Source: Thermoplasmata archaeon (GTDB lineage Archaea; Thermoplasmatota; Thermoplasmata; RBG-16-68-12; JAJISG01). Taken from it: a stretch of 64,000 nt of DNA. Under the pieces are notes generated by a model. It did no database searches, was not told where the DNA came from, and was given only the letters and a program-made list of their open reading frames with translations. Shown in pieces: positions 4,553 through 43,210 of this stretch. Within the stretch, counting starts at the first letter, position 1; each line of letters opens with the position of its first letter. A program made the translations under genes and the position numbers. Where the stretch lies: assembly GCA_046758325.1 (NCBI GenBank), contig JBHHZZ010000001.1:17016-81015 (forward strand), in the 5' to 3' direction.

Positions 4553-7500
4553 TTGGCCGAAGCAAAGACCATTAGGCAGACAATCAGCGTCACCCTCATT
4601 CTAGGTGGCATCTTCGCCCTCGCCGTCTTCATCCGGGCCTACTTCGCCTACGACCTGGCCCTCCGGGACTTCCTCGTGTCGGGAGGTTCCGACGCCTTCT
4701 ACTACAAACGCATCATCGACTACATCGTCTCCACGGGGAAGCACCTCGTCCGGGATGAGATGCTGAACTATCCCTTCGGAATGAACAACCCCAGGCCCCC
4801 CATCTACGCCTGGAGCGTGGCCCTCATCGGCATCCTGCTGGGCAACGTGCAGGGCTCCCTGGAGCTCGGAATATGGCAGAGCTTTCTCTTCTCCACCGCC
4901 TTCTGGGGCGCCCTCACCATCTTCCCCACCTACTTCCTGGCCCGGGACATCTTCGGCCGTCGGGTCGGGTTCGTGGCTGCATTCTTCTTGGCGATCCTCC
5001 CGGCCCACATTCAGAGGACGCCCCTGAGCAACGGGGACCACGACGCCCTCGTCCTCTTCTTCGTGGTGACTGCCTTCTACTTCTTCCTGAGGGCCTTGGG
5101 AGAGCTCAAGGAGAAGACCTGGGTGGACAACTGGATCAGGCCCACCACCGTATATCGGGGTTTGAGGCAGCTCATCGGGGAGAATAGAAGACCCGTCCTC
5201 CTATCGATCATGTCCGGCACGGCCATAGCGGTGGTGGCTCTCACCTGGCAGGGGTGGGCCTATGCCCCGGTGGTCGTAATAGCCTACTTCCTGGTCCAGC
5301 TCCTGGTGCACAAGTTGAGGAACCAGGACCCCCTGGGCACCCTCCTGTGCTTCACCGTGGCCCTGGGAACCGCTCATCTCCTGGCCGCTCCCTACTACAT
5401 CGCAACCGGCTTCGTCCGCACATGGTTCGACGTGCCCCTATTCCTCTTCGCCGCCTCTGTTGCCCTGGGCTTCCTCTTCGCCATCTTCCATCGCCTACCA
5501 TGGATGTTGGTCATCCCGCCCATCGTCCTTGGCTTCGGGGCCGGTCTTGCCATCGCATCCCTCTACAGTCCGGCGGTGGCCCAGACCCTGACCTCCGGTC
5601 TCGGTTACTTCGTCAGGACGAAGGTCTATGAGACCATCGCCGAGGCCCAGCCCCCTAACCTGAGCCAGGCAATCCTCTCCTTCGGCGCCGTGACATATTA
5701 CCTCTCCATGGTCGGCATCGTCTGGATGGCCATCCAGTTTGTTCGGAGGCCAAGGCTCCATTATCTCTTCGCCCTAGCGTGGAGCGCTGCGGCCATCTTC
5801 ATGGCCATGTCAGCCGTCCGGTTCATCTTCAACGCTTCCCCCGCCTTCGCCATCACCTCGGCGTGGGTGACGGTCCTCATCGTGGAGAGGCTGGGGCTAG
5901 AGCAGGTGAGGAAGGCCGTGGTATCCACGGGCGGGAGCAAATGGGTGGCCCTCAAGAGGGGGATAAAGGTCAGGCATGTGGCCGGAGCCCTCTTCGTTGC
6001 CCTTCTCCTCATCCTTCCTAACACCTGGTACGCCGTAGACGCTGCCATACCCTTCGAGAAGAAGCAGGAACTGGATCTGGAGGTGTACAGGAGCACGCCG
6101 GAGCCCCTGAGGCCCCAGGGCTACAGGGAGGGGAGTCTCTTCTACTTCGGCGCCTTCGGTTACAGTCTTCCCCTACCCAACAGGTACTTCCCGAAAGCTT
6201 GGGAATGGCTACGCCAGCAGGACGCCGACATAGTGCCGTATTGGGAGCGACCTGCCTTCCTGAGCTGGTGGGACTACGGGTTTGAGGCCATCCAAGAGGG
6301 CAGGCACCCGACAGTGGCGGACAACTTCCAGAACGGTCTCGAGTTCGCGGGTCACTTCCTGGCGGCCCAGAGCGAGAACGAGGCCATCGCGGTACTGAAC
6401 ATACGCCTCCTCCATGGAGACTTGACCCTCAACCGCGGCAGCTTCAGCGCGGGGGTCCGACAGGCCCTGGCCGATAAGGGCCTGGACCCTGATTTCGTGA
6501 AGGACGTCCTTCGCAGGCCCGCCGTCTACGTCCCCCTCATTAGGTCAGACCCGGATCGCTTCGGGGAATGGGATGTCCGACTCTCCAGCAAGAACGTGAG
6601 GGTGATCTTCCTCAAGACCGTGCTGACGGAGACGCTGGACCTGGACGGTCAGGCTGATCTCTATAGGGACCTGAGAAGCGCCACGGGCAACTCCGTCCTC
6701 TATTTCGCAGTCGACTCCCGACTCGTGCCCTTCTCAGGGACGAACACCGGGATATTCTACGCACCCATCAAGCTCACAGACCACAGAACGGTGGAATTGC
6801 CCGATGGCAGGAGCATACCCGTAGACTTCTACAGACTGGTGGCAGAGACAGACCGGGGGGAATATGACCTCGAAAAGGTGCCGCCAACGGCCAGGGTCAT
6901 CAACATCCGCATCGAGTACAAGGAGATGTTCTACAACAGCATGCTGTACAGAATCTTCTTCGGAACTCGCGGCCAGGACGTGGGTAAGGAGGACGATGGG
7001 CTTCCCGGGATATCTGGACAGCTGCAAGCAGAGGCACCCAGCCAAGGCCGAATGCTGAAGCACTTCAAAATGGTTTATCGAACGGCGTATTTCAACCCGA
7101 ACCCGCCCGACGAGGCCGCCAACAGAACGGAGGACTGGAGTGCCATCAACCTGTTCGACGCTCTGGAGCTGCAACAGAGCATCGAACGCGGGGAAGCAGA
7201 GGGGACCGTGGACATCTCGGCCCGAGCAAGTCTGCAACAGGGAATCGTCATCCTGAAGTACTACGACGGGGCCATCCTTAGGGGCCAGGTCACGACTCAG
7301 GCAGGCAGACCGCTGGAAGGAGTAAGGATAACAGTGCTCGACGACCTTTCCATACCCCACGATGTCACCTTCACAGACTCCAAGGGATTCTACGAAGCCC
7401 TGCTGCCCTTTGGGGAGGTCCGGGTGGTGGCCTCCGTGGGAGATGTGGACGGCGCTACCCAGACTGGGAGAACTGTCCTGGGCGAGAAAGAGCTGACGGT

Positions 7501-10500
7501 GAGCGAGGACCAGGCAATGAACCTCCCTCTGGACGTCGACGGCGATGGTCGCCCTGATTACCTCCTAGAGGAGCTGTTCCAGATCCAGGGGGCATCCCTG
7601 GAGGGCGTCGCCTTCCTGGACCTCAATGGAAACACGAGGAAGGACATGGAGGAAGGCACGCTTGAGGGACTGCAGGTGGAGGTTACGGACAGTAAGGGTG
7701 GTACCGTTGCCGCGACCCTGACGGACGCCGACGGGTTTTATCGGGTCACTGACCTCCTACCTGGCACCTACAACATCTCTCTCAGACGCGCGGACGCAAA
7801 GGTGGTGGAAACGGAAGTGACCATAACCCTGGGCGAGCGCAGGACTCAGGACCTGCCCGTCTTCGTCAAGCAACTGGCTGGCAGGGTGGTGGACGAGTTA
7901 GGTGGACCGGCGGAGGGAGCCCTAATCCAGCTGACGGAAGAGGCCACAGGCGTGCGGATCGTGACGGTGGCGAACGGCAAGGGAAACTACACCTTCGAAG
8001 GGCTCTTCGAGGGCAACTATACGCTGGAGGCCACCCTCGGAGAACGGGGCTCCCTCCCCAGGAGGTTGAGGATTGTACGGGGACAGAACACCACCGGAGA
8101 CCTAGAGGTGGAACCCATGGGCGAGCTCACAGGGAGATCCCTCCTTTCGTTTGTGCCGGCGCCTTTCGTGTCCTTTACATTGTTGAGGAGAGGGGACGGT
8201 CTTGCCGCAACCGTCATTAGCGACTCCTCAGCTCGCTTTGACGTGAGGTTGCCTGAAGGCACTTATGATGTCTACGCCTTGCACTTCGAGAGGAGCAGAC
8301 CCTACAGCTTTTTGGGAGCCCTCCAAGTGGGCGAAGGGAGCGTTCAGACTCTAGAGTTGAACCTCCAGCCCGCCTTGAGGGTCCATGGAAGCATCGTACA
8401 AGAGGACGGGACCGGGGCGGGCGGGGCCCACATTACTTTCGAGATGTCCGGGGCACAGACTACCCTCGTATCTGACAATGACGGCTCCTTCCTGGTGTAC
8501 CTACCACCTGGACCCTACAACTTGTGGGCCCTCTCGGAGGAGGGACAGCATGTATCCTCCTTGCTCTTGGAGACGACCACAAGTCTGGAGGTTCTCCTAG
8601 TAAGCGGGACGCCCGTGGAGGGAAGGGTTTTCTACGACAAAAACCGGAACGCCACGTGGGATGCCGGAGAGGGGCTGGAGGGCGTGCGGATTCAGCTCGT
8701 CGATTCCTCTGGAAGAGCCCTGTCTGTCATCACCCAGGAAGAGGGGAGGTACCGGGTTCCGCTCCTAAAGGAGACGAGCTACCGGCTGAGCATCGATGAG
8801 GCTGGTTTCACACCTATATCCCTCGGACCCTTCACGGCGACAGAGATGGCCGGCGTCGCCATCATCGAGCTGAGGCCTGAGACCCTTCAGGTTTCCGGAC
8901 GCCTCGAGGGGTCGGTGGACCTGGCGGGTATCGGTGTCCTCCTCGACGCCATCGGGGACGGCGCGACCTCCGTCGAGGTGACGACAGACGCCGCGGGCGC
9001 CTTCTCTGCCGAGGTCCTCCCTGGACTTTACAGGTTGGTAGTCGACGTCAGGGAGGACGGTGGCGGCGATGGCGTGAGAATCCAGAACCTGCAGGAGGAG
9101 ATTCTGAGGGTTCCCGTAGGAAAGGACGTGGGGCCCATCCTCATTCGAGTGGTCAGAAGGGTACTGGTGGAGGGGCAGATTGATGTGGAAGGGGGCCCCT
9201 TTGAGGGGGCACTTTCATTTATCGGCCCTGAGGAGGCCTCTCTCAACATCCAGGGGGAGTTCGCAACATACCTGCAGCCGGGAAACTACACTATCTACGC
9301 GACCGCCCAGCTGAACTTCAAGAAGTATGCGCTCCTGGAGCACAGAGACCTCACATCACCGGCAAACCTCTCCTTCACCCTAGATGAGGCCGCGGTTCTG
9401 TCAGGGGGTGTGAAGGTGGGAGATTCCATCGTCTCAAACAGCATTCCCCTGAGCTTCCTCCGCCAGGATGGGGCAAGGGTGGAGCTGCAGACTGAGGTCT
9501 CAGGGACCTACCTGGCAATCCTCTCTGGTGGTACATATCAGGTAAACCTCGAGTGGCGGGGCCTGGACGAGGTTGACGGCCTTCGGAGATTCGTTCGCTA
9601 TACCTTCAGTCAGGAGGTAACGGTCCAGGGAGGACAACCGGAACAGCTTGACCTCACGCTGAGCAGGTCCCTGGACAACGCTACCCTTGTGACTGAAGTG
9701 CTCCTCTCTGACCAGCTGGTCTCAGCTACCCTCACCTTTGAGGCAGCAAATGAGACAGCGGTGTCCACAACTGTCAAGGCTCCCGCTGGGACCTCTTTTG
9801 AGGTCTCTTTGGCGCCTGGAACCTACAGCATCTACGCCTACAGGGACACGGGCAAGTCGGTAAACCTGACCATGCTGGAGGTGGTGCCCTACATGAGCAA
9901 CGAGGCCACACTTCGCCTGGAGGCTGGATATAGAGTCGCCGGCGTCGTCTCTCTCGAGGATGGCACCAAGGAGACAGCGAGGATAGAGTTCACGTCGGTG
10001 GCAAGCATTAGCTTCGACTCCGACGGGCTAGGCATCTTCGAGGCGTATCTCCCCAAGGGCCAGTACCAGGTGACGGCCACCTCCCAGAGGCTCGAAAGGG
10101 GGATGCTCGTCGACTACGAGTTCTCTGGTCCCCTGGACATCAGGGAGAGTACCCTCCTGAACCTGCAGCTGGCCAGGGTAACCTTCCAGGGCGTGGAAGT
10201 CATATGGGATCCGTTGGAGAGGACCAGCGCCCTTCCAGGAGAGGGAGCGGTGTACACCCTGACCTTGAGGAACACGGGAAACGTGGAGGACAGCTTCAGA
10301 CTGGAGGGCCGACCCCAGGACTGGGGATTCGACTTCGACCCCCCAGTCGTGACCCTGCCCTTCGGTGAGAGTAGCGAGACTACCGTCAAGCTTACCATCA
10401 CCTCTCCCGACGACGCCGAGGTGGCTCATGAGCCTCTCGTCATCGAGGCCGTCTCCACCTCCAATGCCAGCGTTATGGAATTCACCCAGGTTGAGCTCGA

Positions 10501-11020
10501 CATACTTCAGATCAGGGGAGTCGTCCTACGTCTTTCGGAGGAGCCCCCTGTGCTGTCACCCGGGGCACTGGAGTACGAGGTCGAGGTGTTCAACGAGGGG
10601 AATGGGGAGGATATCTACACCCTCATCCTGACGAACCCAGAGACCCTCTCCATCCAGGGATGGAGAGCGAAGCTTCTCTACAAAAACCAGACCTCCCCAG
10701 ACAGGACGGAGGATGTCGCGGTCCCAGCTAGGGAGGCGAGGTCAGTGACCCTGAGGCTGGAGACAACGGGCCCCGTCAGCGCCTCCAAGGTTGTTCTGCT
10801 GGCCTTTTCCCAGGATGATCGCAATGTGGAGTCTTACCTAGAGGTGAAGCTCTCCTTCCCTTCCCTTGACATTCCCATTGAGGATGTAAGCCTCGAAGGG
10901 AAGAACGTGAGGTTGGGACCTCCGGAGTTCCCACTGATCCTCTACGCGGCCATAGCAGCGGCCGCCGTCCTCGCGGCCATCATCCTCATTCGGTACAGAC
11001 AGAAGAGGTGGCGCCGTTGA
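4553..11020 (+). CDS. aglB: Giant AglB/STT3 oligosaccharyltransferase (2155 aa): N-terminal multi-TM STT3 domain with WWDYG, then about 8 tandem CarboxypepD_reg/Cna-B (SdrD-B-like) beta-sandwich repeats and a C-terminal TM anchor
   Basis: WWDYGFEAIQ catalytic motif near nt 6268. Repeats of the form G.V.D..G.PLEGV.I.L.D......TDA.GFY....L.PG.Y.L span about nt 7250-10850. Hydrophobic LILYAAIAAAAVLAAIILI lies at the C-terminus. TTG start. Confidence 0.8.
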   Translation: MAEAKTIRQTISVTLILGGIFALAVFIRAYFAYDLALRDFLVSGGSDAFYYKRIIDYIVSTGKHLVRDEMLNYPFGMNNPRPPIYAWSVALIGILLGNVQGSLELGIWQSFLFSTAFWGALTIFPTYFLARDIFGRRVGFVAAFFLAILPAHIQRTPLSNGDHDALVLFFVVTAFYFFLRALGELKEKTWVDNWIRPTTVYRGLRQLIGENRRPVLLSIMSGTAIAVVALTWQGWAYAPVVVIAYFLVQLLVHKLRNQDPLGTLLCFTVALGTAHLLAAPYYIATGFVRTWFDVPLFLFAASVALGFLFAIFHRLPWMLVIPPIVLGFGAGLAIASLYSPAVAQTLTSGLGYFVRTKVYETIAEAQPPNLSQAILSFGAVTYYLSMVGIVWMAIQFVRRPRLHYLFALAWSAAAIFMAMSAVRFIFNASPAFAITSAWVTVLIVERLGLEQVRKAVVSTGGSKWVALKRGIKVRHVAGALFVALLLILPNTWYAVDAAIPFEKKQELDLEVYRSTPEPLRPQGYREGSLFYFGAFGYSLPLPNRYFPKAWEWLRQQDADIVPYWERPAFLSWWDYGFEAIQEGRHPTVADNFQNGLEFAGHFLAAQSENEAIAVLNIRLLHGDLTLNRGSFSAGVRQALADKGLDPDFVKDVLRRPAVYVPLIRSDPDRFGEWDVRLSSKNVRVIFLKTVLTETLDLDGQADLYRDLRSATGNSVLYFAVDSRLVPFSGTNTGIFYAPIKLTDHRTVELPDGRSIPVDFYRLVAETDRGEYDLEKVPPTARVINIRIEYKEMFYNSMLYRIFFGTRGQDVGKEDDGLPGISGQLQAEAPSQGRMLKHFKMVYRTAYFNPNPPDEAANRTEDWSAINLFDALELQQSIERGEAEGTVDISARASLQQGIVILKYYDGAILRGQVTTQAGRPLEGVRITVLDDLSIPHDVTFTDSKGFYEALLPFGEVRVVASVGDVDGATQTGRTVLGEKELTVSEDQAMNLPLDVDGDGRPDYLLEELFQIQGASLEGVAFLDLNGNTRKDMEEGTLEGLQVEVTDSKGGTVAATLTDADGFYRVTDLLPGTYNISLRRADAKVVETEVTITLGERRTQDLPVFVKQLAGRVVDELGGPAEGALIQLTEEATGVRIVTVANGKGNYTFEGLFEGNYTLEATLGERGSLPRRLRIVRGQNTTGDLEVEPMGELTGRSLLSFVPAPFVSFTLLRRGDGLAATVISDSSARFDVRLPEGTYDVYALHFERSRPYSFLGALQVGEGSVQTLELNLQPALRVHGSIVQEDGTGAGGAHITFEMSGAQTTLVSDNDGSFLVYLPPGPYNLWALSEEGQHVSSLLLETTTSLEVLLVSGTPVEGRVFYDKNRNATWDAGEGLEGVRIQLVDSSGRALSVITQEEGRYRVPLLKETSYRLSIDEAGFTPISLGPFTATEMAGVAIIELRPETLQVSGRLEGSVDLAGIGVLLDAIGDGATSVEVTTDAAGAFSAEVLPGLYRLVVDVREDGGGDGVRIQNLQEEILRVPVGKDVGPILIRVVRRVLVEGQIDVEGGPFEGALSFIGPEEASLNIQGEFATYLQPGNYTIYATAQLNFKKYALLEHRDLTSPANLSFTLDEAAVLSGGVKVGDSIVSNSIPLSFLRQDGARVELQTEVSGTYLAILSGGTYQVNLEWRGLDEVDGLRRFVRYTFSQEVTVQGGQPEQLDLTLSRSLDNATLVTEVLLSDQLVSATLTFEAANETAVSTTVKAPAGTSFEVSLAPGTYSIYAYRDTGKSVNLTMLEVVPYMSNEATLRLEAGYRVAGVVSLEDGTKETARIEFTSVASISFDSDGLGIFEAYLPKGQYQVTATSQRLERGMLVDYEFSGPLDIRESTLLNLQLARVTFQGVEVIWDPLERTSALPGEGAVYTLTLRNTGNVEDSFRLEGRPQDWGFDFDPPVVTLPFGESSETTVKLTITSPDDAEVAHEPLVIEAVSTSNASVMEFTQVELDILQIRGVVLRLSEEPPVLSPGALEYEVEVFNEGNGEDIYTLILTNPETLSIQGWRAKLLYKNQTSPDRTEDVAVPAREARSVTLRLETTGPVSASKVVLLAFSQDDRNVESYLEVKLSFPSLDIPIEDVSLEGKNVRLGPPEFPLILYAAIAAAAVLAAIILIRYRQKRWRR

Positions 11021-18398: not shown

Positions 18399-19352
18399 TC
18401 AGCTTGCCCTTCTGGCCCTCCTCGGGGAAACCTCTAGGCCAAGAGCCGATGCGATGCTCGTGTACCTCACCCTTATGGTTACCTCAGAGACCCCGGCGAC
18501 CTCGCTGATACTCTCCTGAGAAACCTTCCTACCAGTCAGGATTGAGGCGAGGTAGATGCAAGCCGCCACGGTCCCAGCGGGTGCCTTGGAGTGGAACCGC
18601 TCCGCCAGCTCCGTCTTGCGAACGAGCTCCAAGGCCTTGAGTTCCACATCCATGGGGAGCTTCAGCTTGCTCGCGAACCGCTTAACAAAGTCCTCGGCCT
18701 TGGGTGGTCGAAGGCCCAATCCCAAACCCCGGACGATGGCTTTGTATGACAGGGTGAGCTCCTTCTTCTCGACCTCTAGCAGATGCGAGACCTCGTCCAG
18801 GGTCCTGGGGACCATCATGACCCTGCAGGCTATGTAGATGGAGGCGGCCACCATGCCCTGAATGGTCCTGCCCCGGACGAGCCCACGGGCCGCCGCCTTT
18901 CTGTAGACCAGGGCCGCCTCATCCCTAATCTGCTGCGGTATCCGCATGACCGAGGCCATTCTGTCCAGCTCCATCAGCGCCTCTGCGAGGCTCCTCTCTC
19001 CCGACCTGGAATACTTCATCCGCCTCTGAAGCATCCTCATACGGTAGATTCTCACCTTATCGCCGCCAGGCAGTGGTCTGCCGTGGAAGTCCCTTGCACT
19101 GGAAGATATCTCCGTCGTCAAGCCCTTGTCGTGGACGCTGACGCTGGAAGGGGACCCGGTCCTGATCCTGGCGGCCGCTTCGATGCCACTACCCGTCCAC
19201 TCGGGGCCCTTGTCGATGTAGTTGTCACTGACAACAAGCCCGCAGCTCTCGCACACCAGCTCCCCCCTGACATAGTCCCTCACCAGATGGCTGCTGCCAC
19301 ATTCTGGGCACACGTCCTCGTCTGCACGCTGTTCTAAGGTACTGGCCTCCAT
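18399..19352 (-). CDS. tfb: Transcription initiation factor IIB (TFB)
   Basis: Zinc ribbon CPECGS...CESCG followed by two cyclin repeats. Confidence 0.85.
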   Translation of the reverse strand: MEASTLEQRADEDVCPECGSSHLVRDYVRGELVCESCGLVVSDNYIDKGPEWTGSGIEAAARIRTGSPSSVSVHDKGLTTEISSSARDFHGRPLPGGDKVRIYRMRMLQRRMKYSRSGERSLAEALMELDRMASVMRIPQQIRDEAALVYRKAAARGLVRGRTIQGMVAASIYIACRVMMVPRTLDEVSHLLEVEKKELTLSYKAIVRGLGLGLRPPKAEDFVKRFASKLKLPMDVELKALELVRKTELAERFHSKAPAGTVAACIYLASILTGRKVSQESISEVAGVSEVTIRVRYTSIASALGLEVSPRRARRAS

Positions 19353-19461: not shown

Positions 19462-19752
19462 CTAGCCCCAGCTTATGACTAGCAGCACAGCGAAGGCCGA
19501 AGCCTCGGCGATGCTGAGGTAGAGCATCGGCAAAGCAACCTCGGGGCCAAAGCCCTGTTCTGACAGTTGGAAGTAGGAGAATATGCCCACAAGGTTCTCC
19601 ACGAGGAATAGGAGCGCGAAGATGAGAAGGCCCAGGGCAAAGGGCGACCTCGCCTTCCTGAAATTCCTCCCATAGACAAACGTCAGGCCGAGGAGCAGGG
19701 CCACACTTATGCTCCCCACGACGATGTCCATGAGCCAAATAGTGCCTACCAT
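19462..19752 (-). CDS. Small 3-TM membrane protein; paralog of the 42397-42678 gene
   Basis: Three hydrophobic helices, 96 aa; alignable with the 42397 ORF. Confidence 0.45.
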   Translation of the reverse strand: MVGTIWLMDIVVGSISVALLLGLTFVYGRNFRKARSPFALGLLIFALLFLVENLVGIFSYFQLSEQGFGPEVALPMLYLSIAEASAFAVLLVISWG

Positions 19753-19801
19753 GAGGGTTCAGCCTCCAGGCCACAGCCGACCATCCTTTCATCCTCCACT
19801 T

Positions 19802-20086
19802 CTACTTTTTCCCAACCTTCTCCCAAATCTCCTCAAACTCCTTCCAGAACCTGAGTATGGTAGGGGTGAGGAAGTATAGGGTTCCGTATTCCTCCCCCTC
19901 GGAAGTCATCACCAGATCGTTCCTCTTCAGCACCTTGAGATGATGCCTCACCGTCTTGTAGTCCACTCCTAGCTCCGACGCGAGGCTGTTGGCGTTGTAG
20001 GGACGCTCCTTCAGGAGTACCAGGATGCGAGCGCGATTGATACCGCCCCCGGTCCCCACGACCAGGTGCCAAAGGAGCTTCTTCAA
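19802..20086 (-). CDS. Winged-helix (ArsR/PadR-like) transcriptional regulator
   Basis: RARILVLLKERPYNANSLASELGVDYKTVRHHLKVLKRNDLV is an HTH plus wing. Confidence 0.6.
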   Translation of the reverse strand: MKKLLWHLVVGTGGGINRARILVLLKERPYNANSLASELGVDYKTVRHHLKVLKRNDLVMTSEGEEYGTLYFLTPTILRFWKEFEEIWEKVGKK

Positions 20087-20199
20087 GGAGATCGAACGGC
20101 CAAGGGCCTCGGATTATTTTACTCTACGCAACTCCAGGGGGTTGAAGAATGTCTACAAGATTGAAACTCCTTTTATAACAGAAGCCCCCTCTCAGGGGC

Positions 20200-20862
20200 A
20201 TGGCCCTGAAGGTTCTACAGATCGCCACCCTGGGTGATGAGGAGGATCCGATCTATGTCGGTATACGAGAGTATCCAATAAGCAAGCTCGTTCTCATCCA
20301 TGAGCCAGAGAAGAGGCTACGGGCGGCTGAGATTACTGGGAAGCTACGGGAGCTCCGCATCCCAGTGGAGAGGAGAGAGGTACAGAATCCTGCCCGGGAC
20401 ATGTATCAGGTCATCAGCTCCATAATCAAGGAGGAGGGGAAGAGGTTTGACGACATTATCATCAACGTCTCCAGCGGGAGGAAGCTGATGACGTGTTCTG
20501 CCATCAGCGCCGCCTTCGTCAACGGCCTCAAGGCCTTTCACGTGGAGGACGACACGCCCATGATGCTTCCAGTGCTGAAGTTCAGCTACAGCGAGGTCAT
20601 CTCGCCGAGCAAGGTCAGCATCCTGAGGGCCCTGGACAGGATGGGCGGCGTTGCCGACTCCCTCAGCGACCTCAGCAAGATATCCGAAGTGGAGAAATCC
20701 CTGCTGAGCTACCATCTGAGAGGTGGTAGGGAGTCGAAGGGGCTAGAGACGCTGGGCCTGGTGGAGATCGACCGTGGCACCCAGGGCAGGCTGCTGATCA
20801 AGCTGACGGAGATGGGTAGGCTCCTCCTCATAGGCCAGGAGGAGGTGGATAGCCCAAGCTGA
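20200..20862 (+). CDS. CARF-domain plus wHTH (Csa3-like) regulator, orphan with no cas genes in the window
   Basis: N-terminal Rossmann-like domain with LQIATLGD (motif 1) and NVSSGRK ([DN]x[ST]xxx[RK], motif 2); C-terminal wHTH ILRALDRMG...LSYHLRGGRE..GLVE. Confidence 0.5.
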   Translation: MALKVLQIATLGDEEDPIYVGIREYPISKLVLIHEPEKRLRAAEITGKLRELRIPVERREVQNPARDMYQVISSIIKEEGKRFDDIIINVSSGRKLMTCSAISAAFVNGLKAFHVEDDTPMMLPVLKFSYSEVISPSKVSILRALDRMGGVADSLSDLSKISEVEKSLLSYHLRGGRESKGLETLGLVEIDRGTQGRLLIKLTEMGRLLLIGQEEVDSPS

Positions 20863-20896: not shown

Positions 20897-21076
20897 CTAA
20901 TCCTCTACAACTTCCCCGAAGGCCATCCTTCTGAGGACACGGGTGATCTTAATCTTCACCCTGTCCCCAATCTTGGTACCAGGAACAAAGACGACGAAGT
21001 TCTCAATCCTAGCGAGGCCGTCTCCTTCCCTTCCCAGATCCTCGATTGTGGCCTCATAGACCTTACCTTCCTCCAC
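20897..21076 (-). CDS. TRAM-domain small protein (59 aa), absent from the ORF track
   Basis: Reverse-strand translation M(GTG)EEGKVYEATIEDLGREGDGLARIENFVVFVPGTKIGDRVKIKITRVLRRMAFGEVVED is a classic TRAM fold. Confidence 0.55.
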   Translation of the reverse strand: MEEGKVYEATIEDLGREGDGLARIENFVVFVPGTKIGDRVKIKITRVLRRMAFGEVVED

Positions 21077-36476: not shown

Positions 36477-37652
36477 CTACCAGGCGCCCTTGCCACGGCG
36501 GAAGATCGCGGCCGAGGCGGCGGCGGTGACGGCCACCCCAAGGAGGACGTACATGATGACACCTGGCGTAAGCTCCCGGATGGGACCCTCCAACAGCTCC
36601 CCGATGGTGAGTATCTTGGTGGAGAGCTCGGGGATGTAGACCAGGAAGATGATTCCGTTGGGTCCCGTGGCGGCATAGTATCTGGGGGAAGAGGAGGAGG
36701 ATGAGGGAATCTCGTCCGCGTTGTTCGTCCTTTCGACGGGGTTGCCGTCCAGTTCCACAGATAGCCTGTCCATGTCCGCAATCTTGAGGACCTCATGGTG
36801 CAGGTTGATGGCAACCACGATGCCCGGCGATGGGACCGCTGTCTGGGAATCCCGGGAAATTGTGACCTCCACGTTTCCCGCCGCGTCGAGGCTCGACTTC
36901 ACAGATATGTCGGAGTAGAGGACCGCGTCCTCCATGATGCCCCCCTCAAAGGCAACCAGGAAGAGCTCCGCGCCCAGCCTCTGCCGGGCCAAGGCGTTGA
37001 AGACGGTCGCCTGGGCCCAGGAGCCGACCGCCCCTTCATCATCTGCTGGATGGGCCCTGAAGGAGATGACGCTGCCCTGAGACAGGCCGACTCTGACGAC
37101 GTTCGGCTCTACTGAGGTCGTGCTCGACCCGGGCGTGGCGAGCTGACCGCTGAAGCCCGTCCCTGAGACGAGGACGGAATCGCTCTGGAGGGCGAAGAAG
37201 ACGCCTGGAGCGGCTGTGAAGGTGATGCTGAGCTGTTGGGCCATGGAGCGGTAGACGAGGGCCCGGCTGGGATTGTTATGGATACTGACCGATACGTCCG
37301 TACCTTCAAACAAGAGGGCGGGTGACTCTTCAGGTGCTAGGGCCCAAGCTCCAGTCTCCGTGGTGCCTTCGACCTCGACCTGTGCAAACACCTCTGTTGA
37401 CACACCGTCCCTCACGATGCTAAAGGAGGCTAGGCTGCCGTCTGTTCCGAGCATCTCTGCTTCCACGAAGGCGCCCTCGAGAACGCCACCCTCGAACGAG
37501 AGTGGGCCGAACATTCCGACACTTTGGGCTAGATCGAGAGCCTCTTTCCTCCATTCAGCACCGAAAGGTGGCTCGAAGGGGGGCTGAGCCGCGCCTGCCC
37601 CTACGAGTAGGATGACGGATGCGAACACCACTGCCAGGTAGACTCCCCTCAT
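36477..37652 (-). CDS. Secreted surface protein with signal peptide and C-terminal TM anchor
   Basis: N-terminal MRGVYLAVVFASVILLVGAGAAQ; C-terminal IMYVLLGVAVTAAASAAIFRRGK. Confidence 0.5.
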   Translation of the reverse strand: MRGVYLAVVFASVILLVGAGAAQPPFEPPFGAEWRKEALDLAQSVGMFGPLSFEGGVLEGAFVEAEMLGTDGSLASFSIVRDGVSTEVFAQVEVEGTTETGAWALAPEESPALLFEGTDVSVSIHNNPSRALVYRSMAQQLSITFTAAPGVFFALQSDSVLVSGTGFSGQLATPGSSTTSVEPNVVRVGLSQGSVISFRAHPADDEGAVGSWAQATVFNALARQRLGAELFLVAFEGGIMEDAVLYSDISVKSSLDAAGNVEVTISRDSQTAVPSPGIVVAINLHHEVLKIADMDRLSVELDGNPVERTNNADEIPSSSSSSPRYYAATGPNGIIFLVYIPELSTKILTIGELLEGPIRELTPGVIMYVLLGVAVTAAASAAIFRRGKGAW

Positions 37653-37843
37653 TCCACATCACCCTCCGTGGGCCCCCTGGTGGACCACCACGGGAGCTGC
37701 TCGGGGCCCACAGGAAGACGAGCGCCCAGCCCGAGTACGATCTGTCGGGGCCCTTGGTTCGCATCCTCCGGCCCCCTGGAGAATCCGAGAGGATGAGGGG
37801 AGGCCTCCACATCGTCCCCGAGGAGCGCTGTCTCTGCAGGCAC
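37649..37843 (-). CDS. Putative small leaderless ORF (64 aa, Pro/Gly/acidic-rich) coupled by ATGA to the downstream surface protein gene
   Basis: ATG lies about 28-30 nt downstream of the TATA at 37868-37879. Its TGA stop overlaps the ATG of the 36477-37652 gene. Confidence 0.3.
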   Translation of the reverse strand: MPAETALLGDDVEASPHPLGFSRGPEDANQGPRQIVLGLGARLPVGPEQLPWWSTRGPTEGDVE

Positions 37844-37867: not shown

Positions 37868-37920
37868 TTAAATAGAATTTGGCACAAATCTCGAACCGCT
37901 TCATACGACCATCGAACTCA
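37868..37920 (-). promoter_or_regulatory. Promoter: TATA (ccttaaatagaat) plus two TCGAAC-core boxes 21 nt apart
   Basis: cacaaatcTCGAAcc at 37883-37897 and cgaccaTCGAActca at 37906-37920; same architecture as at 41297-41352 and 42272-42325. Confidence 0.45.
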
Positions 37921-39093: not shown

Positions 39094-41034
39094 TTACCCT
39101 CCATCCCCCTTTCTCATGAGCTTGAACACGAGGAAGCCTAGGACCGCCAAGAGAGTGGCTATCCCAACCGCGACATAGAACAAGCTCGTGCTGGTCAGGG
39201 GAGGCGGGAAGTCGCTGAAGGTCAGGGTGATGCTTTCGGAGCTGTTGAGCTCAGTCTGGGCCGATTGAACGCCCGAGTCATAGAGTGAGCCCATGTACGA
39301 GGTCACGTAACGAGCCTGGACTGTGTAGCTGCCCCCGGGCAGGAGCAGCACGACTGTGCCGTCTGGACCGGTAAGGCCAGCGTCATAGACGAGACCCGTG
39401 GAATCTGTCAAGCTGACGAACACGCCCGAGAGCGCCTGTCCGTCTCCCGACATGGTGGTGACGGTGAGCTTGTAAACGGCCGTCCTGAAGGCGATGATAT
39501 CGTTGCCCACCACGTCACCGCTTCCGTTGAAGACGTCGACCCCCCGCCAGGCTGCCAGGAGGGCGTATGTGCCTACCGGGACCTGGCTGAGGGTGACCTG
39601 GCCGCTTCCGTCGGTCTTGTAGGGGCCGAGTTTCTCCCCGTTTGGATGAATGAAGATCAGCGAAGCCCCCGCCAGGGCAGAGCCGTCTGAATCCTCAGCC
39701 TGGAAGACGGGGTAGTACACCTGTGTGTCGATTACCAGAGGGTTCGACTCTGTGATGTTGGACTGGACATCCTGAAGCGAGGAGGCGACCCTCACGTCTT
39801 GCCAATAGACCTGGAACTCGTACGCGGCCTTGGCCATGGTAAAGTTCACCATTCCATCCGGGTCCGTCGTCTTGGCGTCTACGATGAAGCCGCCACTTAC
39901 CAGTTCCACCCTCGCACCTGCCAGGGGCACGCTCTTGGAGTCGACCGTCTTTACGTTTGCATAGACGGGCAGCCCGTCGATGAAGAACGTCGATGTAGCG
40001 GTATCGGGATAATCGTCATAGTCGAACTGCTGGAAGAAGTGGTAGTAGTTGTGACCGTTGTTGTCGAGCGCCCAAACCTGCATCGTGTATTCCCCGATTG
40101 CCTGGTCCGTGTAGTTCCAGACGACCTCGAACACGCTGTCGTAGCTCCTAGGGGTGCCAGAAATGTGGGCCATGGAGACGTTGTCCAGGAGGACGACGCC
40201 GAACGGAGACATGAGGGTAAGGTTGACCCAGCGGATGTCGTACCCGCCTAGGGGGTCGGTAACATTGGCCTGGATGTACACCGTCTTGTTTTCAGCCACA
40301 GGATCGAAGTTGATTTCTGGGTTCCGATTCCAGTCCAGGGTCGCGATTGTGGCAACATCCAGGGAATCGGGTCCACGAAAGCTAATGCGGCTGTTGACCT
40401 GGGGTGTGTCGTAATGAAGCCAGATCCCTTGCAGAGCTCCCGGCGTGACGGTCATCCGCAGCTCGATGGAAGATCCGGCTCGGAAGGTGTGAGGGGACAC
40501 AAAGGTCGCGTTCCAGCTAGCCAGTGTCGGTGTGACTGGAAAGTCCTGACTGCCCAAGTTCTCCTCATGGACCAACGTGGAGGTCGTCGTATTCAGCTCG
40601 AAAATCTCCAGGGTGACCTGCGCGTTGCTGCTCGCTCCCGTAGAGGAATTGGCCCAGATTCGCAGGGTGAATCCATCCGCGCTGAAATCGCCCACCAAGG
40701 CAGGGACTGAGAACCACTGCATCACTTTCTGCGTTCCCTCGACCAGAACGCTTACGTTCACGTCGTTGAAGTCCAGGGTCGTATCGAAGTAGGTGAGTGT
40801 GCTGCCACCGTCCGGCAAGGGCTTTGCCGTCTCTGTTGCGTTGACCGAGTGGAGCAGAAAGGTCATGTCTTTTGTCACGCCGTTGACGGCGTGGACCGTG
40901 GGGGCCGGAAGCGTGACCACGAGTAGGGCGGACAGGACGAGCAGCGGAAGAGCGAGCAACGTCAAGGCCTTGGACGCAGTCGATCTCGTTCCTGCATACC
41001 GGAGAGGGGTCTTTTCTCGGGTCATGGGAAGCAC
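39094..41034 (-). CDS. Large secreted glycoprotein candidate: signal peptide, CarboxypepD_reg-like repeats, many N-x-S/T sequons, C-terminal TM anchor
   Basis: GARVELVSGGFIVDAKTTDPDGMVNF..., GASLIFIHPNGEKLGPYKTDGSGQVTL..., GVFVSLTDSTGLVYDAGLTGPDGTVVL...; at least 14 sequons; C-terminal LFYVAVGIATLLAVLGFLVFKLMRK. Confidence 0.55.
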   Translation of the reverse strand: MLPMTREKTPLRYAGTRSTASKALTLLALPLLVLSALLVVTLPAPTVHAVNGVTKDMTFLLHSVNATETAKPLPDGGSTLTYFDTTLDFNDVNVSVLVEGTQKVMQWFSVPALVGDFSADGFTLRIWANSSTGASSNAQVTLEIFELNTTTSTLVHEENLGSQDFPVTPTLASWNATFVSPHTFRAGSSIELRMTVTPGALQGIWLHYDTPQVNSRISFRGPDSLDVATIATLDWNRNPEINFDPVAENKTVYIQANVTDPLGGYDIRWVNLTLMSPFGVVLLDNVSMAHISGTPRSYDSVFEVVWNYTDQAIGEYTMQVWALDNNGHNYYHFFQQFDYDDYPDTATSTFFIDGLPVYANVKTVDSKSVPLAGARVELVSGGFIVDAKTTDPDGMVNFTMAKAAYEFQVYWQDVRVASSLQDVQSNITESNPLVIDTQVYYPVFQAEDSDGSALAGASLIFIHPNGEKLGPYKTDGSGQVTLSQVPVGTYALLAAWRGVDVFNGSGDVVGNDIIAFRTAVYKLTVTTMSGDGQALSGVFVSLTDSTGLVYDAGLTGPDGTVVLLLPGGSYTVQARYVTSYMGSLYDSGVQSAQTELNSSESITLTFSDFPPPLTSTSLFYVAVGIATLLAVLGFLVFKLMRKGDGG

Positions 41035-41035
41035 G

Positions 41036-41278
41036 CTACCGGGTGACTAAGCTCTTCGCTGCAGCCGCAATCGCGGCCCCGATACCACCCCCTGCGGCTC
41101 CACCGGCGAGGGCGTTCGAGACCGCTGAGACCACCGTGTAGCCATGCGTTCCCTGCGGGATGTGGGCGAGGGCGACGCCCAGCCCCGTGACGTCTCCTGT
41201 TGTCACCGACATAATCCCCATGGTGACTGCTCCGATCGCCGCCCCAACGGCGGCCGCGATGGGTATTGATATCATCAT
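41036..41278 (-). CDS. Small Gly/Ala-rich (glycine-zipper-like) membrane peptide, first gene of the surface operon
   Basis: 80 aa with AAAVGAAIGAVTMGIM...GGAAGGGIGAAIAAAA. Its stop is 1 nt from the downstream start. Leaderless, with the ATG about 24 nt from the TATA. Confidence 0.45.
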   Translation of the reverse strand: MMISIPIAAAVGAAIGAVTMGIMSVTTGDVTGLGVALAHIPQGTHGYTVVSAVSNALAGGAAGGGIGAAIAAAAKSLVTR

Positions 41279-41296: not shown

Positions 41297-41352
41297 TGTT
41301 TAAGAGCGCTTTGGCTCAAGCAACGAACAGTGTGGAACAAGCTTCGAACAAG
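41297..41352 (-). promoter_or_regulatory. Promoter: TATA (tgtttaagag) plus two CAAGCnnCGAAC boxes 21 nt apart
   Basis: caagcaACGAAc at 41317-41328 and caagctTCGAAc at 41338-41349. Confidence 0.5.
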
Positions 41353-41593: not shown

Positions 41594-42250
41594 CTAGTGC
41601 CTCTTCCGCAGGGCCACCGTGGCAGCTAGCAGGACGATGACGACCGCCAGTGTGATGAGGGCCCAGCCCATGGCGGTGAGGCCGTCGGCTCCCAGTATGG
41701 TGCCGATGTCTGAGGTCGTCGGGGATATCTCGATGTACTGGACCGAGAAGTGCGTGATCACGAAGACGTAGACCTCCGCACCACCTGCATCCACTGAGCT
41801 GGTCACGCCCTGGTAGTTCACCCCCTCCGAGACCTCGATGGATAGACTGCTTTCATCACTCTCGACGTAGGTTTCTATGAAGTCCTTGTTGACGAGGAGG
41901 GTCACCAGATTGGTCGGGACCCCGTCCTCCGCCTCTATGGAGAGGGCCTTTGTGTCCGTGGAAAGGGAGACGGTTACCCTGTCGATCCCGTCCGGCGTGC
42001 CGGCGTTGACGACCAAGGCTGCCCACGGCTCGATGTCATCTGTAAAGATGAACGTGGCGACGCCTATCCTGGCGGCGTCGTTAGCGGTGCCGATGGCCGA
42101 TTCCGTGTCCTTTCCTGGTACTGACGGAAGGTCGATCGTCAGAGGGGACTGGGCGGAAGCCAGACCCCCGAAGACGAGGGCCAGACCGATGAGGAAGGCT
42201 ACCCTCACCATTGCTGCCCCCGTTTCCATCCTCGTAGTCCTCAGCTCCAT
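41594..42250 (-). CDS. Secreted protein with signal peptide and C-terminal TM anchor
   Basis: N-terminal VAFLIGLALVFGGLASAQS; C-terminal WALITLAVVIVLLAATVALRKRH. Confidence 0.5.
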   Translation of the reverse strand: MELRTTRMETGAAMVRVAFLIGLALVFGGLASAQSPLTIDLPSVPGKDTESAIGTANDAARIGVATFIFTDDIEPWAALVVNAGTPDGIDRVTVSLSTDTKALSIEAEDGVPTNLVTLLVNKDFIETYVESDESSLSIEVSEGVNYQGVTSSVDAGGAEVYVFVITHFSVQYIEISPTTSDIGTILGADGLTAMGWALITLAVVIVLLAATVALRKRH

Positions 42251-42271: not shown

Positions 42272-42325
42272 CCTTATATTCTGTTTGGCACAAGCCTCGA
42301 ATCGCCTAGCACAGGCTTCGAACGG
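42272..42325 (-). promoter_or_regulatory. Promoter: TATA (ccttatattc) plus two CA(A/G)GCyTCGAA boxes 21 nt apart
   Basis: caagccTCGAAt at 42291-42302 and caggctTCGAAc at 42312-42323; the ATG is about 27 nt from the TATA (leaderless). Confidence 0.5.
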
Positions 42326-42396
42326 AATGAACTGCTATTATCGATACTAAAAACAGAAGCTTTTTACCAGCCCCTAGGCTATTTCCGTTTGATTAC

Positions 42397-42678
42397 ATGG
42401 TTTCCCTGAGCGAAGTTGAGCCCTTCTTTCGGGTATCCTTGATGGGATTTGCCCTGCTCCTTACGATCCTCATGGGCGTGACCACCTACCGTGTGAAGAG
42501 CGGGAAGCTCCTCCTGGTAACTCTGGGATTCCTGGCCTTCTTCATCAAGGGACTTCTCCTGACCTTGGGAATCTTCTTGACCGCGTTCAGAGACGCTTTC
42601 CAGGCCAACCCGGAGATAATGCTGATGGACTTCGCCATCCTCGTCCTGATCTACGCGGGGATGGTAAAGGGCTCCTGA
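42397..42678 (+). CDS. Small 3-TM membrane protein; paralog of the 19462-19752 gene
   Basis: 93 aa with three hydrophobic helices; alignable with the 19462 ORF. Confidence 0.45.
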   Translation: MVSLSEVEPFFRVSLMGFALLLTILMGVTTYRVKSGKLLLVTLGFLAFFIKGLLLTLGIFLTAFRDAFQANPEIMLMDFAILVLIYAGMVKGS

Positions 42679-42688
42679 GGACAGGCCC

Positions 42689-43210
42689 ATGGGAGAGGAG
42701 GAGGTCCTGGACCTCGAGAGACGCAGAATGGTCTACCAGTTCATCAAGTCCCATCCGGGGCTCCACATGAGGGGCCTGGAGAAGCGCCTAGGCATCTCCC
42801 TGGGGGACCTAAGGTACCACCTGGACTATCTCGAGAAAAAGGAGTTGATAACCAGCCGGAGCGATGGCTACAGGAAGACTTACTTCTCCACTAGGGATGT
42901 CTACCTCCAGGATAGGGACCTTCTGGCCCTGCTGCGGCAACGTGGGCCCAGGAAGCTCATCCTGCATCTCATGCTCACCCAGAACGCCTCCTTCGACGAG
43001 CTCCGCCAGGTCTTGGGAGTGTCGAAATCCACCCTCTCCTTTCACTTAAGAAAGCTCACAGACAAGGGTATCGTGAAGGTCCTGAGGCGGGAGGGAAAGA
43101 ACGCCTACTACGTGGAGGACAAGGAGAACGTTGCAGAGCTGCTGATTACCTACAAGGGGAGCTTCCTGGACGAAGCGGTTGACAGGGTGTTGCAGGTCTG
43201 GCTTCCCTAG
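42689..43210 (+). CDS. Transcriptional regulator with two tandem wHTH domains
   Basis: Two repeats: ...FIKSHPGLHMRGLEKRLGISLGDLRYHLDYLEKKELI... and ...ASFDELRQVLGVSKSTLSFHLRKLTDKGIV.... The first resembles the 19802 regulator. Confidence 0.6.
   Translation: MGEEEVLDLERRRMVYQFIKSHPGLHMRGLEKRLGISLGDLRYHLDYLEKKELITSRSDGYRKTYFSTRDVYLQDRDLLALLRQRGPRKLILHLMLTQNASFDELRQVLGVSKSTLSFHLRKLTDKGIVKVLRREGKNAYYVEDKENVAELLITYKGSFLDEAVDRVLQVWLP

Follow-up and report, generated by a model that had tools for sequence, protein, structure and literature searches.

Two non-paralogous operons in a Thermoplasmata genome pair a three-helix membrane protein with an ArsR-type regulator

Regulators that are controlled from the membrane include Mlc-PtsG, BlaI/BlaR1, the anti-sigma/ECF sigma pairs, and the membrane-bound ArnR of Sulfolobales, while operons of the ArsR/SmtB regulators (ars, cad, czr) classically encode their own effectors. 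In Bacillus subtilis, the membrane protein SdpI is thought to sequester the ArsR-family autorepressor SdpR at the membrane (PMC2910880). Within the SdpI family, the homologues with three transmembrane segments (TMS) correspond to the half of the protein that is proposed to bind SdpR, and SdpI homologues in general are often encoded beside winged helix-turn-helix (wHTH) regulators (PMC2910880). In Haloferax volcanii, the regulator HVO_0163 was more abundant under hypochlorite stress (PMC10294847). The literature searched contained no published function, operator, or partner of HVO_0163, no relevant paper on the membrane protein families DUF8036 and DUF7471, and nothing relevant on archaeal pairs of an ArsR regulator and a small membrane protein.

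The window (the whole stretch of 64,000 nucleotides that was analyzed) is derived from a Thermoplasmata MAG and contains two gene pairs, each of a small membrane protein and a regulator, whose four ORFs were all found where the original prediction had placed them. Module A (19462-20086, minus strand) begins with regA (19802..20086), which has a TTG start and encodes a minimal ArsR-type wHTH regulator of 94 aa; after 49 nt it is followed on the same strand by memA (19462..19752), which encodes a three-helix membrane protein of 96 aa belonging to Pfam DUF8036 (PF26119). In module B (42397-43210, plus strand), the membrane protein gene memB (42397..42678) comes first and codes for a three-helix protein of 93 aa from an unnamed family, herein called famB, while regB (42689..43210) starts 10 nt past memB and encodes a protein of 173 aa with a tandem pair of wHTH domains (HTH_HVO_0163_N and ArsR HTH_5) as well as a C-terminal helix that is conserved. 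The order of the regulator and membrane protein genes is therefore inverted between the two sites, as had been claimed, and the shared wHTH is indeed single in the 94-aa regulator and double in the 173-aa one.

The likeness of these pairs to Mlc-PtsG, BlaI/BlaR1, anti-sigma/ECF sigma, and ArnR would be that the product of a nearby membrane protein gene sets the activity of a cytoplasmic DNA-binding protein. However, those systems belong to other protein families and their membrane partners have sensor or enzymatic domains of considerable size; memA and memB, in contrast, are about 95 residues long and have almost no extramembrane mass. As in SdpR/SdpI, an ArsR-type repressor and a polytopic membrane protein share one operon, and in module A the regulator is likewise the first gene. 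Unlike SdpI, neither DUF8036 nor famB shows detectable sequence similarity to that family, since SdpI models gave no match for memA or memB at E ≤ 1, nor for 37 and 36 members of the two families at E ≤ 0.01. Furthermore, the regulators stayed far below the cut-off of 100 bits that NCBIfam sets for its SdpR subfamily (NF033789; 34.7 bits for regA and 29.1 bits for regB), no toxin partner was evident, and module B differs in its opposite gene order and its double-wHTH regulator. Both pairs appear to be analogous to SdpI/SdpR without being members of that family, and it is SdpI/SdpR that provides the best available analogy (PMC2910880) for the earlier suggestion of a membrane-tethered anti-regulator acting on a regulator.

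The original prediction had further held that each membrane protein is conserved together with its wHTH partner and that the pairs should co-occur in other archaeal genomes, and this was amply borne out by locus searches seeded with the regA alignment (A6) and a narrow regB alignment (A12). Of the 80 best genome matches, 77 had a readable locus, and in all 77 a DUF8036-like ORF was present directly 3' of regA, the three apparent exceptions being two truncated loci and one with Ns, and a famB gene was present directly 5' of regB in all of the 75 readable metagenome loci. The regA-DUF8036 pair spans Thermoplasmata to methanogens and Asgard, and a search from the DUF8036 side led to the same pair in five independent contexts, Woesearchaeota included. 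Similarly, when the search started from the membrane protein, famB was followed by regB in eight of eight contexts, with identities as low as 34%, and a small ORF with three transmembrane (TM) segments preceded the regB-like gene in six of seven haloarchaeal plasmids inspected. The gene order is fixed inside each family and opposite between the two (about 150 loci). Tandem duplication of whole modules was seen at three Methanobacterium loci. Since the pairing is effectively obligate, it is very likely that the membrane protein and its wHTH partner are functionally coupled. DUF8036 is a family without a described function, and the present data show that it is obligately paired with a single, specific subfamily of ArsR regulators.

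The memA protein is identical (100%, full length) to database protein P0001, and its DUF8036 membership rests on the precomputed PF26119 annotation of this identical copy, an annotation that is also carried by all 120 listed memA homologues. The 17 close homologues of memB had no Pfam annotation, and a profile search collected 76 cluster representatives of famB at E ≤ 1e-3. In size and three-TM architecture, famB equals DUF7471 (PF24283), a small haloarchaeal membrane family. Yet memB itself did not match DUF7471 at E ≤ 1; matches at E ≤ 0.01 were obtained for 5 of 37 distant famB members, famB relatives scored 13-20 bits, with all individually inspected scores below the 27-bit cut-off, and the haloarchaeal partners of regB-like genes reached 20 bits. 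Judged by these scores, famB is at best a distant relative of DUF7471 and not a member of it. The AF2 models of memA (pLDDT 93.9; helices 2-34/37-66/70-95) and memB (pLDDT 85; helices 4-33/36-60(+62-67)/72-92) are both confident three-helix bundles with nearly equal length and helix boundaries, a fold that is too simple for structural comparison to discriminate. In both families, conservation is highest at TM1-loop1-TM2 and lowest in loop 2. The most conserved residues of memA (Y27, N30, S36, F38, G41, L42, and F45) are found around the basic loop 1, and those of memB are R32, F45, F48, and G52. In addition, a polar pair (E/Q52-N53) is conserved within TM2 of DUF8036, and in famB K51 and D78 are invariant in the 17 close homologues, K51 being replaced in several distant members. 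The positive-inside rule and variant architectures suggest that the basic TM1-TM2 loop is cytoplasmic and the variable loop 2 faces outward: because some DUF8036 variants possess an additional N-terminal TM and a Pro-rich or N-glycosylation-rich linker, the N terminus of the core would be outside and the basic loop inside.

As for the regulators, Pfam HTH_5 (PF01022; cut-off 22 bits) was matched by regA with 40.0 bits and by regB with 48.5 bits (two stretches; HTH_5 match at residues 88-130), and the solved structures nearest to both were ArsR-family proteins. The N-terminal domain of regB matched PDB 5duk (E = 2e-17) and, at residues 10-69, PF24266 (HTH_HVO_0163_N; 56.0 bits versus a cut-off of 31), so that regB, like the HVO_0163-type regulators (PF24266 plus HTH_5), is above threshold for both domains. 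Its homologues on haloarchaeal plasmids share 31-35% identity over 88-98% of the query length. Unlike HVO_0163-type proteins, regB represents a Thermoplasmata branch with its own candidate operator and a surface-protein neighborhood. Relatives of regA numbered at least 581 in species-representative genomes, and the features invariant in its family are W6, GT.GG, DYKT, HH, and a C-terminal G.K. No Cys is present in regA or regB, no canonical ArsR/SmtB metal-ligand motif was found in regA, the C-terminal helix of which (RFWKEFEEIWEKVGKK) is devoid of His, and neither regulator has the metal- or thiol-ligand residues looked for (Cys in alpha3/alpha3N, His/Asp/Glu in alpha5). Likewise, the alignments of families A4 and A3 contained no conserved Cys or His column. 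Both proteins are therefore best described as probable cytoplasmic ArsR-type winged-helix regulators lacking a recognizable ligand site.

A possible DNA target was apparent for module B. The paired repeat GCACA-N4-TCGAA, present twice in a 21-bp register, occurs three times in the window (at up to three mismatches; none in 100 shuffles) and adjoins the TATA boxes of secreted-protein genes that neighbor the module. The exact copy, candidate O1 (42288..42322, plus strand; GCACAAGCCTCGAA-N7-GCACAGGCTTCGAA), is flanked by the TATA box of a divergent gene (about 42274-42279) on one side and by the promoter of memB-regB (about 42357-42368) on the other, and it is the sole strongly conserved block in an intergenic alignment of five loci (34-58% protein identity), with the register kept. 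The divergent gene (41594..42250, minus strand) encodes a 218-aa protein with a signal-like N-terminal segment, a C-terminal TM anchor, and no Pfam family; its orthologues hold the same divergent position in loci L004, L006, L007, and L012, and we regard it as a putative regB target. Candidate O2 (41314..41348, plus strand; three mismatches; preceded by TTTAAGAG-N4-TTTGG) is located upstream of a putative regB-controlled unit (39094..41278, minus strand) composed of a small membrane ORF rich in Gly and Ala (80 aa; 41036..41278, minus strand) and a surface protein gene (39094..41034, minus strand) whose 646-aa product carries CarboxypepD_reg/SpaA-like domains and has large homologues adjoining the module in L006 and L007. 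Candidate O3 (37882..37916, plus strand; three mismatches; preceded by TTAAATAG-N3-TTTGG) precedes a minus-strand unit whose last gene (36477..37652, minus strand) encodes a secreted protein of 391 aa that is anchored C-terminally and has no Pfam family; a possible 64-aa leaderless ORF (37649..37843) is situated between O3 and this gene. In a comparison of the two putative targets, the 218-aa and 391-aa proteins did not turn out to be paralogues. Only 12 of 75 loci carried the repeat at up to three mismatches; these further loci have 1-3 copies each, at intervals of roughly 0.7-1.8 kb, and the repeat was not detected in more distant loci. From this co-conservation we infer that regB may bind the repeat. 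The original prediction had placed the second pair beside both a surface regulon and a KaiC-like pair. The link to the surface genes is reinforced by the shared conserved cis-element; the KaiC pair does lie next to module B in the window, but this arrangement recurred in none of the seven related loci with readable downstream DNA. We therefore rejected the KaiC pair as a part of the module and regard its association as coincidental.

These findings led us to propose that each pair consists of a membrane sensor, or anti-regulator, and an ArsR-type regulator, in analogy with SdpI/SdpR, a reading to which we give close to an even chance. The three-helix protein would be the signal-input subunit and would sense a perturbation of the membrane or envelope; its cytoplasmic face would hold or release the regulator, as SdpI sequesters the autorepressor SdpR, and this would determine how strongly the pair and its variable neighboring cargo are expressed. 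In module B, a single 14-bp GCACA-N4-TCGAA unit, with its half-site centers separated by 9 bp or about one helical turn, is probably recognized by the two wHTH domains of one regB chain, and two chains would occupy the two units 21 bp apart, beside the BRE/TATA of the surface-protein promoters. In favor of a sensor, the TM1-loop1-TM2 hairpin, which is presumably cytoplasmic, is the most conserved part of both membrane families, and the rise of HVO_0163 under hypochlorite stress (PMC10294847) points the same way. The lack of sequence similarity to SdpI speaks against it. The presumed cytoplasmic surface of the membrane proteins is tiny, about 10 residues, which is also a point against a sensor. 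We extend this proposal more tentatively, and with some doubt, to the families as a whole: DUF8036 and the famB/DUF7471-like three-helix proteins may be dedicated transmembrane input subunits of ArsR-type regulators, forming a widespread archaeal "split one-component" signaling architecture. If so, this design would exist in Thermoplasmata, methanogens, Halobacteria, DPANN, and Asgard, with a role like that of bacterial anti-sigma/ECF sigma or SdpI/SdpR, and module B would already offer a readable candidate operator and a surface-protein regulon. Few archaeal routes from an envelope signal to transcription have been characterized, and two obligate and very widespread pairs would then represent a common, unstudied solution. 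The DUF8036, HTH_HVO_0163_N, and DUF7471-like proteins can now be approached with testable hypotheses on their partners, candidate operator, and candidate targets, and the hypochlorite-responsive HVO_0163 of the genetically tractable Haloferax volcanii is an entry point.

The membrane protein might instead be a regulated effector, that is, a tiny product co-transcribed with an autoregulated ArsR-type repressor. It could, e.g., protect the membrane under stress, form part of a channel or transporter, or assist neighboring efflux or redox systems as an accessory subunit. We consider this rather unlikely, though it has a clear precedent in the ArsR/SmtB operons that encode their own effectors, as is common among ArsR operons, so that the membrane protein could itself be cargo. 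The conserved polar pair of DUF8036 and the K51 and D78 residues of famB would also suit an effector, and so would a second DUF8036 gene that was found at one locus after an ABC ATPase and without a regulator. The genes next to module A in other genomes, which have detoxification, efflux, and extracytoplasmic thiol-redox functions (aldo/keto reductase, 9; MacB/FtsX, 4; ABC, 2; PCYCGC, 2; MatE, 1; thioredoxin-like, 1; operons of Thioredoxin/DsbD_TM/AhpC-TSA in three distant genomes), can be viewed in two ways: the membrane protein is constant while the cargo varies, as would befit an effector, but the pairing is kept whichever cargo comes next. Furthermore, with regulators that have no recognizable ligand-binding residues, the input would be missing if the membrane protein were only an output, and the strongest conservation lies in the hairpin inferred to be cytoplasmic rather than in the loop inferred to face outward, which is the most variable part.

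With regard to the origin of the two modules, the original prediction described the 96-aa and 93-aa membrane proteins as clear paralogs within a duplicated module. This did not hold, as the formal alignment of memA and memB revealed no significant similarity, either pairwise (BLASTP E = 1.6 over 6 residues) or between profiles (hhalign probability of 1% with narrow and 9% with deep family profiles). The deep HMM of each family gave the window protein of the other 1.0 and -2.0 bits, and no bridging sequence was found among the 212 collected homologues (top cross-family score, 9.5 bits). The regulators can be aligned with each other (28% identity, E = 5e-5; 27.9 bits for regB with the regA HMM), but they have only the generic wHTH in common and, by sequence, belong to different ArsR subfamilies. 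With different membrane protein families, different ArsR subfamilies, and an opposite, fixed gene order, the two-gene operons of the window share a design but are independent of each other and not paralogous. It is improbable, in our opinion, that both descend from one very ancient pair of a membrane protein and an ArsR regulator that diverged beyond sequence recognition, with a flip of gene order and a wHTH duplication in one lineage. Such an ancestor would account for the equal length and nearly identical helix boundaries of memA and memB, and for the mutually detectable ArsR-type partners; moreover, the sole hhalign match is in register over TM1-loop-TM2, superposes the conserved R29/R32, G41/G44, and F45/F48, and scores 20.2, more than any of the 30 column-shuffle controls (maximum 16.3). 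However, family B aligned with its own reversed sequences scores 19.4, the likeness of the regulators is weak evidence given that ArsR wHTH domains are ubiquitous, the fold is too simple to discriminate, and the gene order, opposite and fixed in about 150 loci, speaks against common descent. A common ancestor concerns origin and is compatible with a sensor as well as with an effector mechanism.

It is very improbable that the pairs are toxin-antitoxin or defense-like selfish modules made of a membrane-damaging small protein and a wHTH antitoxin or repressor, as their compact two-gene operons of a small hydrophobic and a DNA-binding protein might suggest. Pairs like module B are also present on megaplasmids of haloarchaea, in some cases close to integrases or IS elements. 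Against such a role, the pairs show stable local synteny in related genomes, a housekeeping context (TFB, MetRS), a very broad distribution in which none of the 80 module A loci has more than two copies, and 30-60% identity across classes, unlike fast-evolving toxins of such systems.

In the lineage studied here, module A is followed downstream by a TFB gene with its own TATA box; we considered TFB as a component of the module and rejected it, as it accounts for just 5 of the 53 genes downstream of the module, all in close relatives, and its TATA region is conserved separately. The k-mer counts over 78 regA upstream regions disclosed no family-wide operator, only TATA-like words and clade-specific blocks, e.g., GACTATT..GATAGTAATATTAG in one Thermoplasmata clade, and the short inverted repeats near regA were unconvincing. 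An alignment of eight related upstream regions revealed two conserved elements. The first, a TATA-like sequence, AAAATAAT (20113..20120, minus strand), coincides with a conserved AAATAA block 27-34 nt 5' of the regA start codon and is likely the regA-memA promoter. The second, TATAAAA..GGTTTCAA(A)TCTTG (20155..20178, minus strand), lies in the intergenic region between regA and the divergent gene, includes the TATA box of this plus-strand gene (at 20200), and might serve as an operator shared by both.

At site A of the window, regA (19802-20086, minus strand), a 94-aa regulator ORF with a TTG start, is followed after 49 nt by memA (19462-19752, minus strand), which encodes a 96-aa membrane protein. 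At site B the membrane-protein gene comes first: memB (42397-42678, plus strand; 93 aa) is separated by 10 nt from the 173-aa regulator ORF regB (42689-43210, plus strand), with which two KaiC-like genes converge. The four ORFs were thus confirmed, in size and in inverted order, as originally described, and the wHTH said to occur once in the smaller regulator and twice in the larger was borne out by domain matches. RegA is a single ArsR-type winged helix (HTH_5, 40 bits against a cut-off of 22), while regB combines an N-terminal HTH_HVO_0163_N domain (56 bits against 31) with a second ArsR domain of the HTH_5 type. The two share 28% identity (E=5e-5) in an alignment confined to the generic wHTH domain. 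Their closest solved structures are ArsR-family proteins, namely 2p4w for regA, 5duk for the N-terminal domain of regB, and HlyU, NolR and SmtB-like proteins for its second domain. Neither sequence contains a cysteine, and the His/carboxylate ligands of the alpha5 metal site are absent from regA; both look like ArsR-type DNA binders with no intrinsic sensor. A very long ORF, encoding 2155 aa (4553-11020, plus strand), also lies in the window.

The two membrane proteins had been described as clear paralogs, a relationship that did not withstand formal comparison. The 96-aa protein is a member of Pfam DUF8036 (PF26119), as annotated on an identical database copy and on all 120 listed homologues, while the 93-aa protein falls into a nameless family, here called famB, whose close relatives carry no Pfam domain. 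An exhaustive profile search yielded 76 famB cluster representatives, most of them about 88 aa long; five of 37 famB members matched the haloarchaeal DUF7471 at E<=0.01, with every score inspected individually under the family cut-off. BLASTP between the 96-aa and 93-aa proteins gave nothing (E=1.6), and profile-profile comparison of narrow family alignments returned a probability of 1%. Deepened profiles (36 and 37 diverse members) raised this to 9%, with a score of 20.2 across TM1-loop-TM2; column-shuffled controls reached at most 16.3, and family B against its own reversed sequences reached 19.4, so that a score of about 20 lies within the range of unrelated transmembrane profiles. Furthermore, a deep HMM of each family gave about 0 bits against the other window protein, and no bridging sequence was present among 212 collected homologues. 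AlphaFold models of both proteins were confident (pLDDT 93.9 for the 96-aa and 85 for the 93-aa protein) and consisted of three long helices with near-identical boundaries, and Foldseek found no significant match in the PDB for either model. A modelled three-helix bundle is too simple a fold to discriminate homology. Conserved R, G and F residues coincide in register, which is compatible with a very ancient relationship.

What proved robust was the pairing itself, whose recurrence in other genomes had been anticipated. DUF8036 proteins of 36-67% identity led to five unrelated contexts, one of them in a Woesearchaeota genome; in each, a gene for an HTH_5 protein of about 94 aa lay directly upstream of the DUF8036 gene on the same strand. 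At least 581 regA relatives turned up when one genome per species was scanned; among the best 80 of these loci, a DUF8036-like ORF stood directly downstream in 77. Of the other three, two stop at the regulator, and in the third the downstream ORF contains ambiguous bases. The loci represent Thermoplasmata, Methanobacteriaceae, Methanosarcinales/ANME, Methanomicrobiales, Hydrothermarchaeota, Thorarchaeota and Promethearchaeota. For module B (memB-regB), a regB-type gene followed the famB gene in all eight contexts approached from the membrane gene, at identities as low as 34%, and famB preceded regB in 75/75 metagenome loci with enough upstream DNA. A three-TM hypothetical protein of 95-106 aa was also encoded directly before the regulator in six of the seven haloarchaeal plasmid records inspected. 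Each pairing is effectively obligate. At every locus module A was regulator-first and module B membrane-first. The modules are two distinct conserved operons built to an analogous design and not, as had been proposed, copies of a duplicated module. Tandem pairs of complete regA-DUF8036 modules do occur in Methanobacterium genomes (L027, L089, L090; also L084), and at one locus (L093) an additional DUF8036-like gene, unaccompanied by a regulator, follows a MacB-type ABC ATPase.

The best-kept positions of both membrane families cluster at the end of TM1, in a short basic loop and in TM2 (Y27, N30, S36, F38, G41, L42 and F45 in DUF8036; R32, F45, F48 and G52 in famB), and variation is greatest in the second loop. 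Neither alignment contains a conserved Cys or His. By the positive-inside rule, the basic loop is probably cytoplasmic. This topology is supported by two types of DUF8036 variant, both predicted to put the N-terminus of the core outside: one with an extra N-terminal TM and a proline-rich linker (L021, L024, L036, L066, L073, L081; Thermoplasmatota and Thorarchaeota), the other with an N-terminal extension rich in N-x-S/T sequons (L050, L051, L054, L057; Methanobacteriaceae). On this topology the membrane protein would turn its invariant face to the cytoplasm, where it could meet a regulator that is just as invariant. Among described systems the nearest is SdpR/SdpI of Bacillus subtilis, in which an ArsR-family autorepressor is sequestered upon a signal by its co-transcribed membrane protein; 3-TMS homologues in the SdpI family match the half proposed to bind SdpR, and wHTH regulators are often adjacent (PMC2910880). 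The archaeal pairs would work alike on paper but are not members of that family: their membrane proteins have no detectable similarity to SdpI, and regA scored 34.7 bits against the 100 required for the SdpR subfamily. A literature search on DUF8036, DUF7471 and archaeal ArsR/membrane-protein pairs of this kind returned no paper. The originally proposed membrane-tethered anti-regulator with its regulator is thus retained as the best-supported reading by analogy with SdpR/SdpI, although the sequences are unlike SdpI, and we infer control of the regulator from the membrane only tentatively. The main rival, that the membrane protein is itself the regulated effector, appears somewhat less likely. 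The concept of a regulator controlled from the membrane has bacterial precedents, and the pairs, very widespread and uncharacterised, are now directly testable.

Alignment of the divergent intergenic region upstream of memB from five genomes, whose flanking proteins are only 34-58% identical, revealed one strongly conserved block (42288-42322), composed of two copies of GCACA-N4-TCGAA(C) in a 21-bp register. Allowing up to three mismatches over the 20 specified positions, three such repeat pairs were found in the window and none in 100 shuffles. These candidate operators, O1 (42288-42322), O2 (41314-41348) and O3 (37882-37916), all matched on the plus strand, are each preceded by a TATA-like element and TTTGG, and lie on the BRE side of minus-strand promoters of genes for secreted or anchored proteins. 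The putative targets are a 218-aa protein, an 80-aa Gly/Ala-rich ORF with a 646-aa CarboxypepD_reg/SpaA-like protein, and a unit ending in a 391-aa anchored protein. Related loci carry one to three copies upstream of their modules, roughly 0.7-1.8 kb apart. Half-site centres are 9 bp apart within a unit (about one helical turn) and the units two turns apart, a spacing by which one regB chain might read one GCACA-N4-TCGAA unit through its two wHTH domains, with two chains on the same DNA face beside BRE/TATA. The shared repeat reinforces the predicted link of the second pair to a surface regulon. The KaiC link gained no such backing: the KaiC-like genes adjoin module B in the window, but KaiC stands beside the module in none of the seven related loci whose downstream DNA could be read.

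The 80-aa small membrane ORF (41036-41278, minus strand; no Pfam family) starts about 25 nt downstream of the TATA-like element adjoining O2 and stops 1 nt before the GTG of the 646-aa gene; it appears to be a genuine gene, leaderless and first in its unit. The GTG start of a possible acidic ORF of 64 aa (37649-37843, minus strand) lies some 25 nt away from the TATA-like element next to O3, and the stop of this ORF forms an ATGA-type overlap with the ATG of the 391-aa gene. The putative regB-controlled surface-protein genes are flanked by an FtsZ homologue (Tubulin and FtsZ_C; 35300-36424, minus strand) and a subtilisin-like S8 peptidase (37929-39023, minus strand); the peptidase may belong to the unit downstream of O2.

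For regA, a family-wide operator was not found; a clade-specific conserved block lies between two divergent TATA boxes (20155-20178). Divergent from regA, at a position kept in close relatives (L001-L003), is a gene for a 220-aa protein (20200-20862, plus strand) with an HFX_2341_N/Csa3-like Rossmann (CARF-like) N-terminal domain and a weak C-terminal ArsR-type HTH, which could have the intergenic control region in common with module A. Between it and MetRS is a 59-aa ORF (20897-21076, minus strand), whose L002 counterpart is annotated as a TRAM domain protein. The TFB gene located 110 nt after memA (18399-19352, minus strand) was rejected as part of module A, since it follows only in the window organism's close relatives and has its own conserved TATA region.

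Across 53 loci the gene after module A varies by genome, including aldo/keto reductases (nine), MacB/FtsX permeases (four), ABC ATPases and PCYCGC proteins (two each), one MATE exporter and one thioredoxin-like protein; in ANME/Methanosarcinales a secreted Cys-rich protein is encoded there. Three distant genomes have the pair at the head of a thioredoxin/CcdA(DsbD_TM)/peroxiredoxin-like operon. A pair that stays constant while its cargo changes among detoxification, efflux and envelope-redox genes is consistent with a stress-responsive switch. HVO_0163, the prototype of the regB family, becomes more abundant in Haloferax volcanii after hypochlorite stress (PMC10294847). The secreted Methanosarcinales/ANME follower (about 140 aa; L025, 3684-4130; L026, L030-L032, L043, L044, L058, L060) has repeated thrombospondin type-3-like D-x-D-G-D-G-[IV]-C-D-N motifs, one Cys each, and GCGCG runs. 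On haloarchaeal plasmids (L095, L097-L099), a 'thrombospondin type 3 repeat' protein and an ApbE FMN transferase adjoin module-B-like pairs. Haloarchaeal 3-TM partners of regB-like regulators (L100:1196-1516, L101:518-793) start their last helix with an HH-x2-EH motif and may be a metal-sensing variant; one is encoded within a nos cluster (NosL, ABC transporter), with NosL between partner and regulator.
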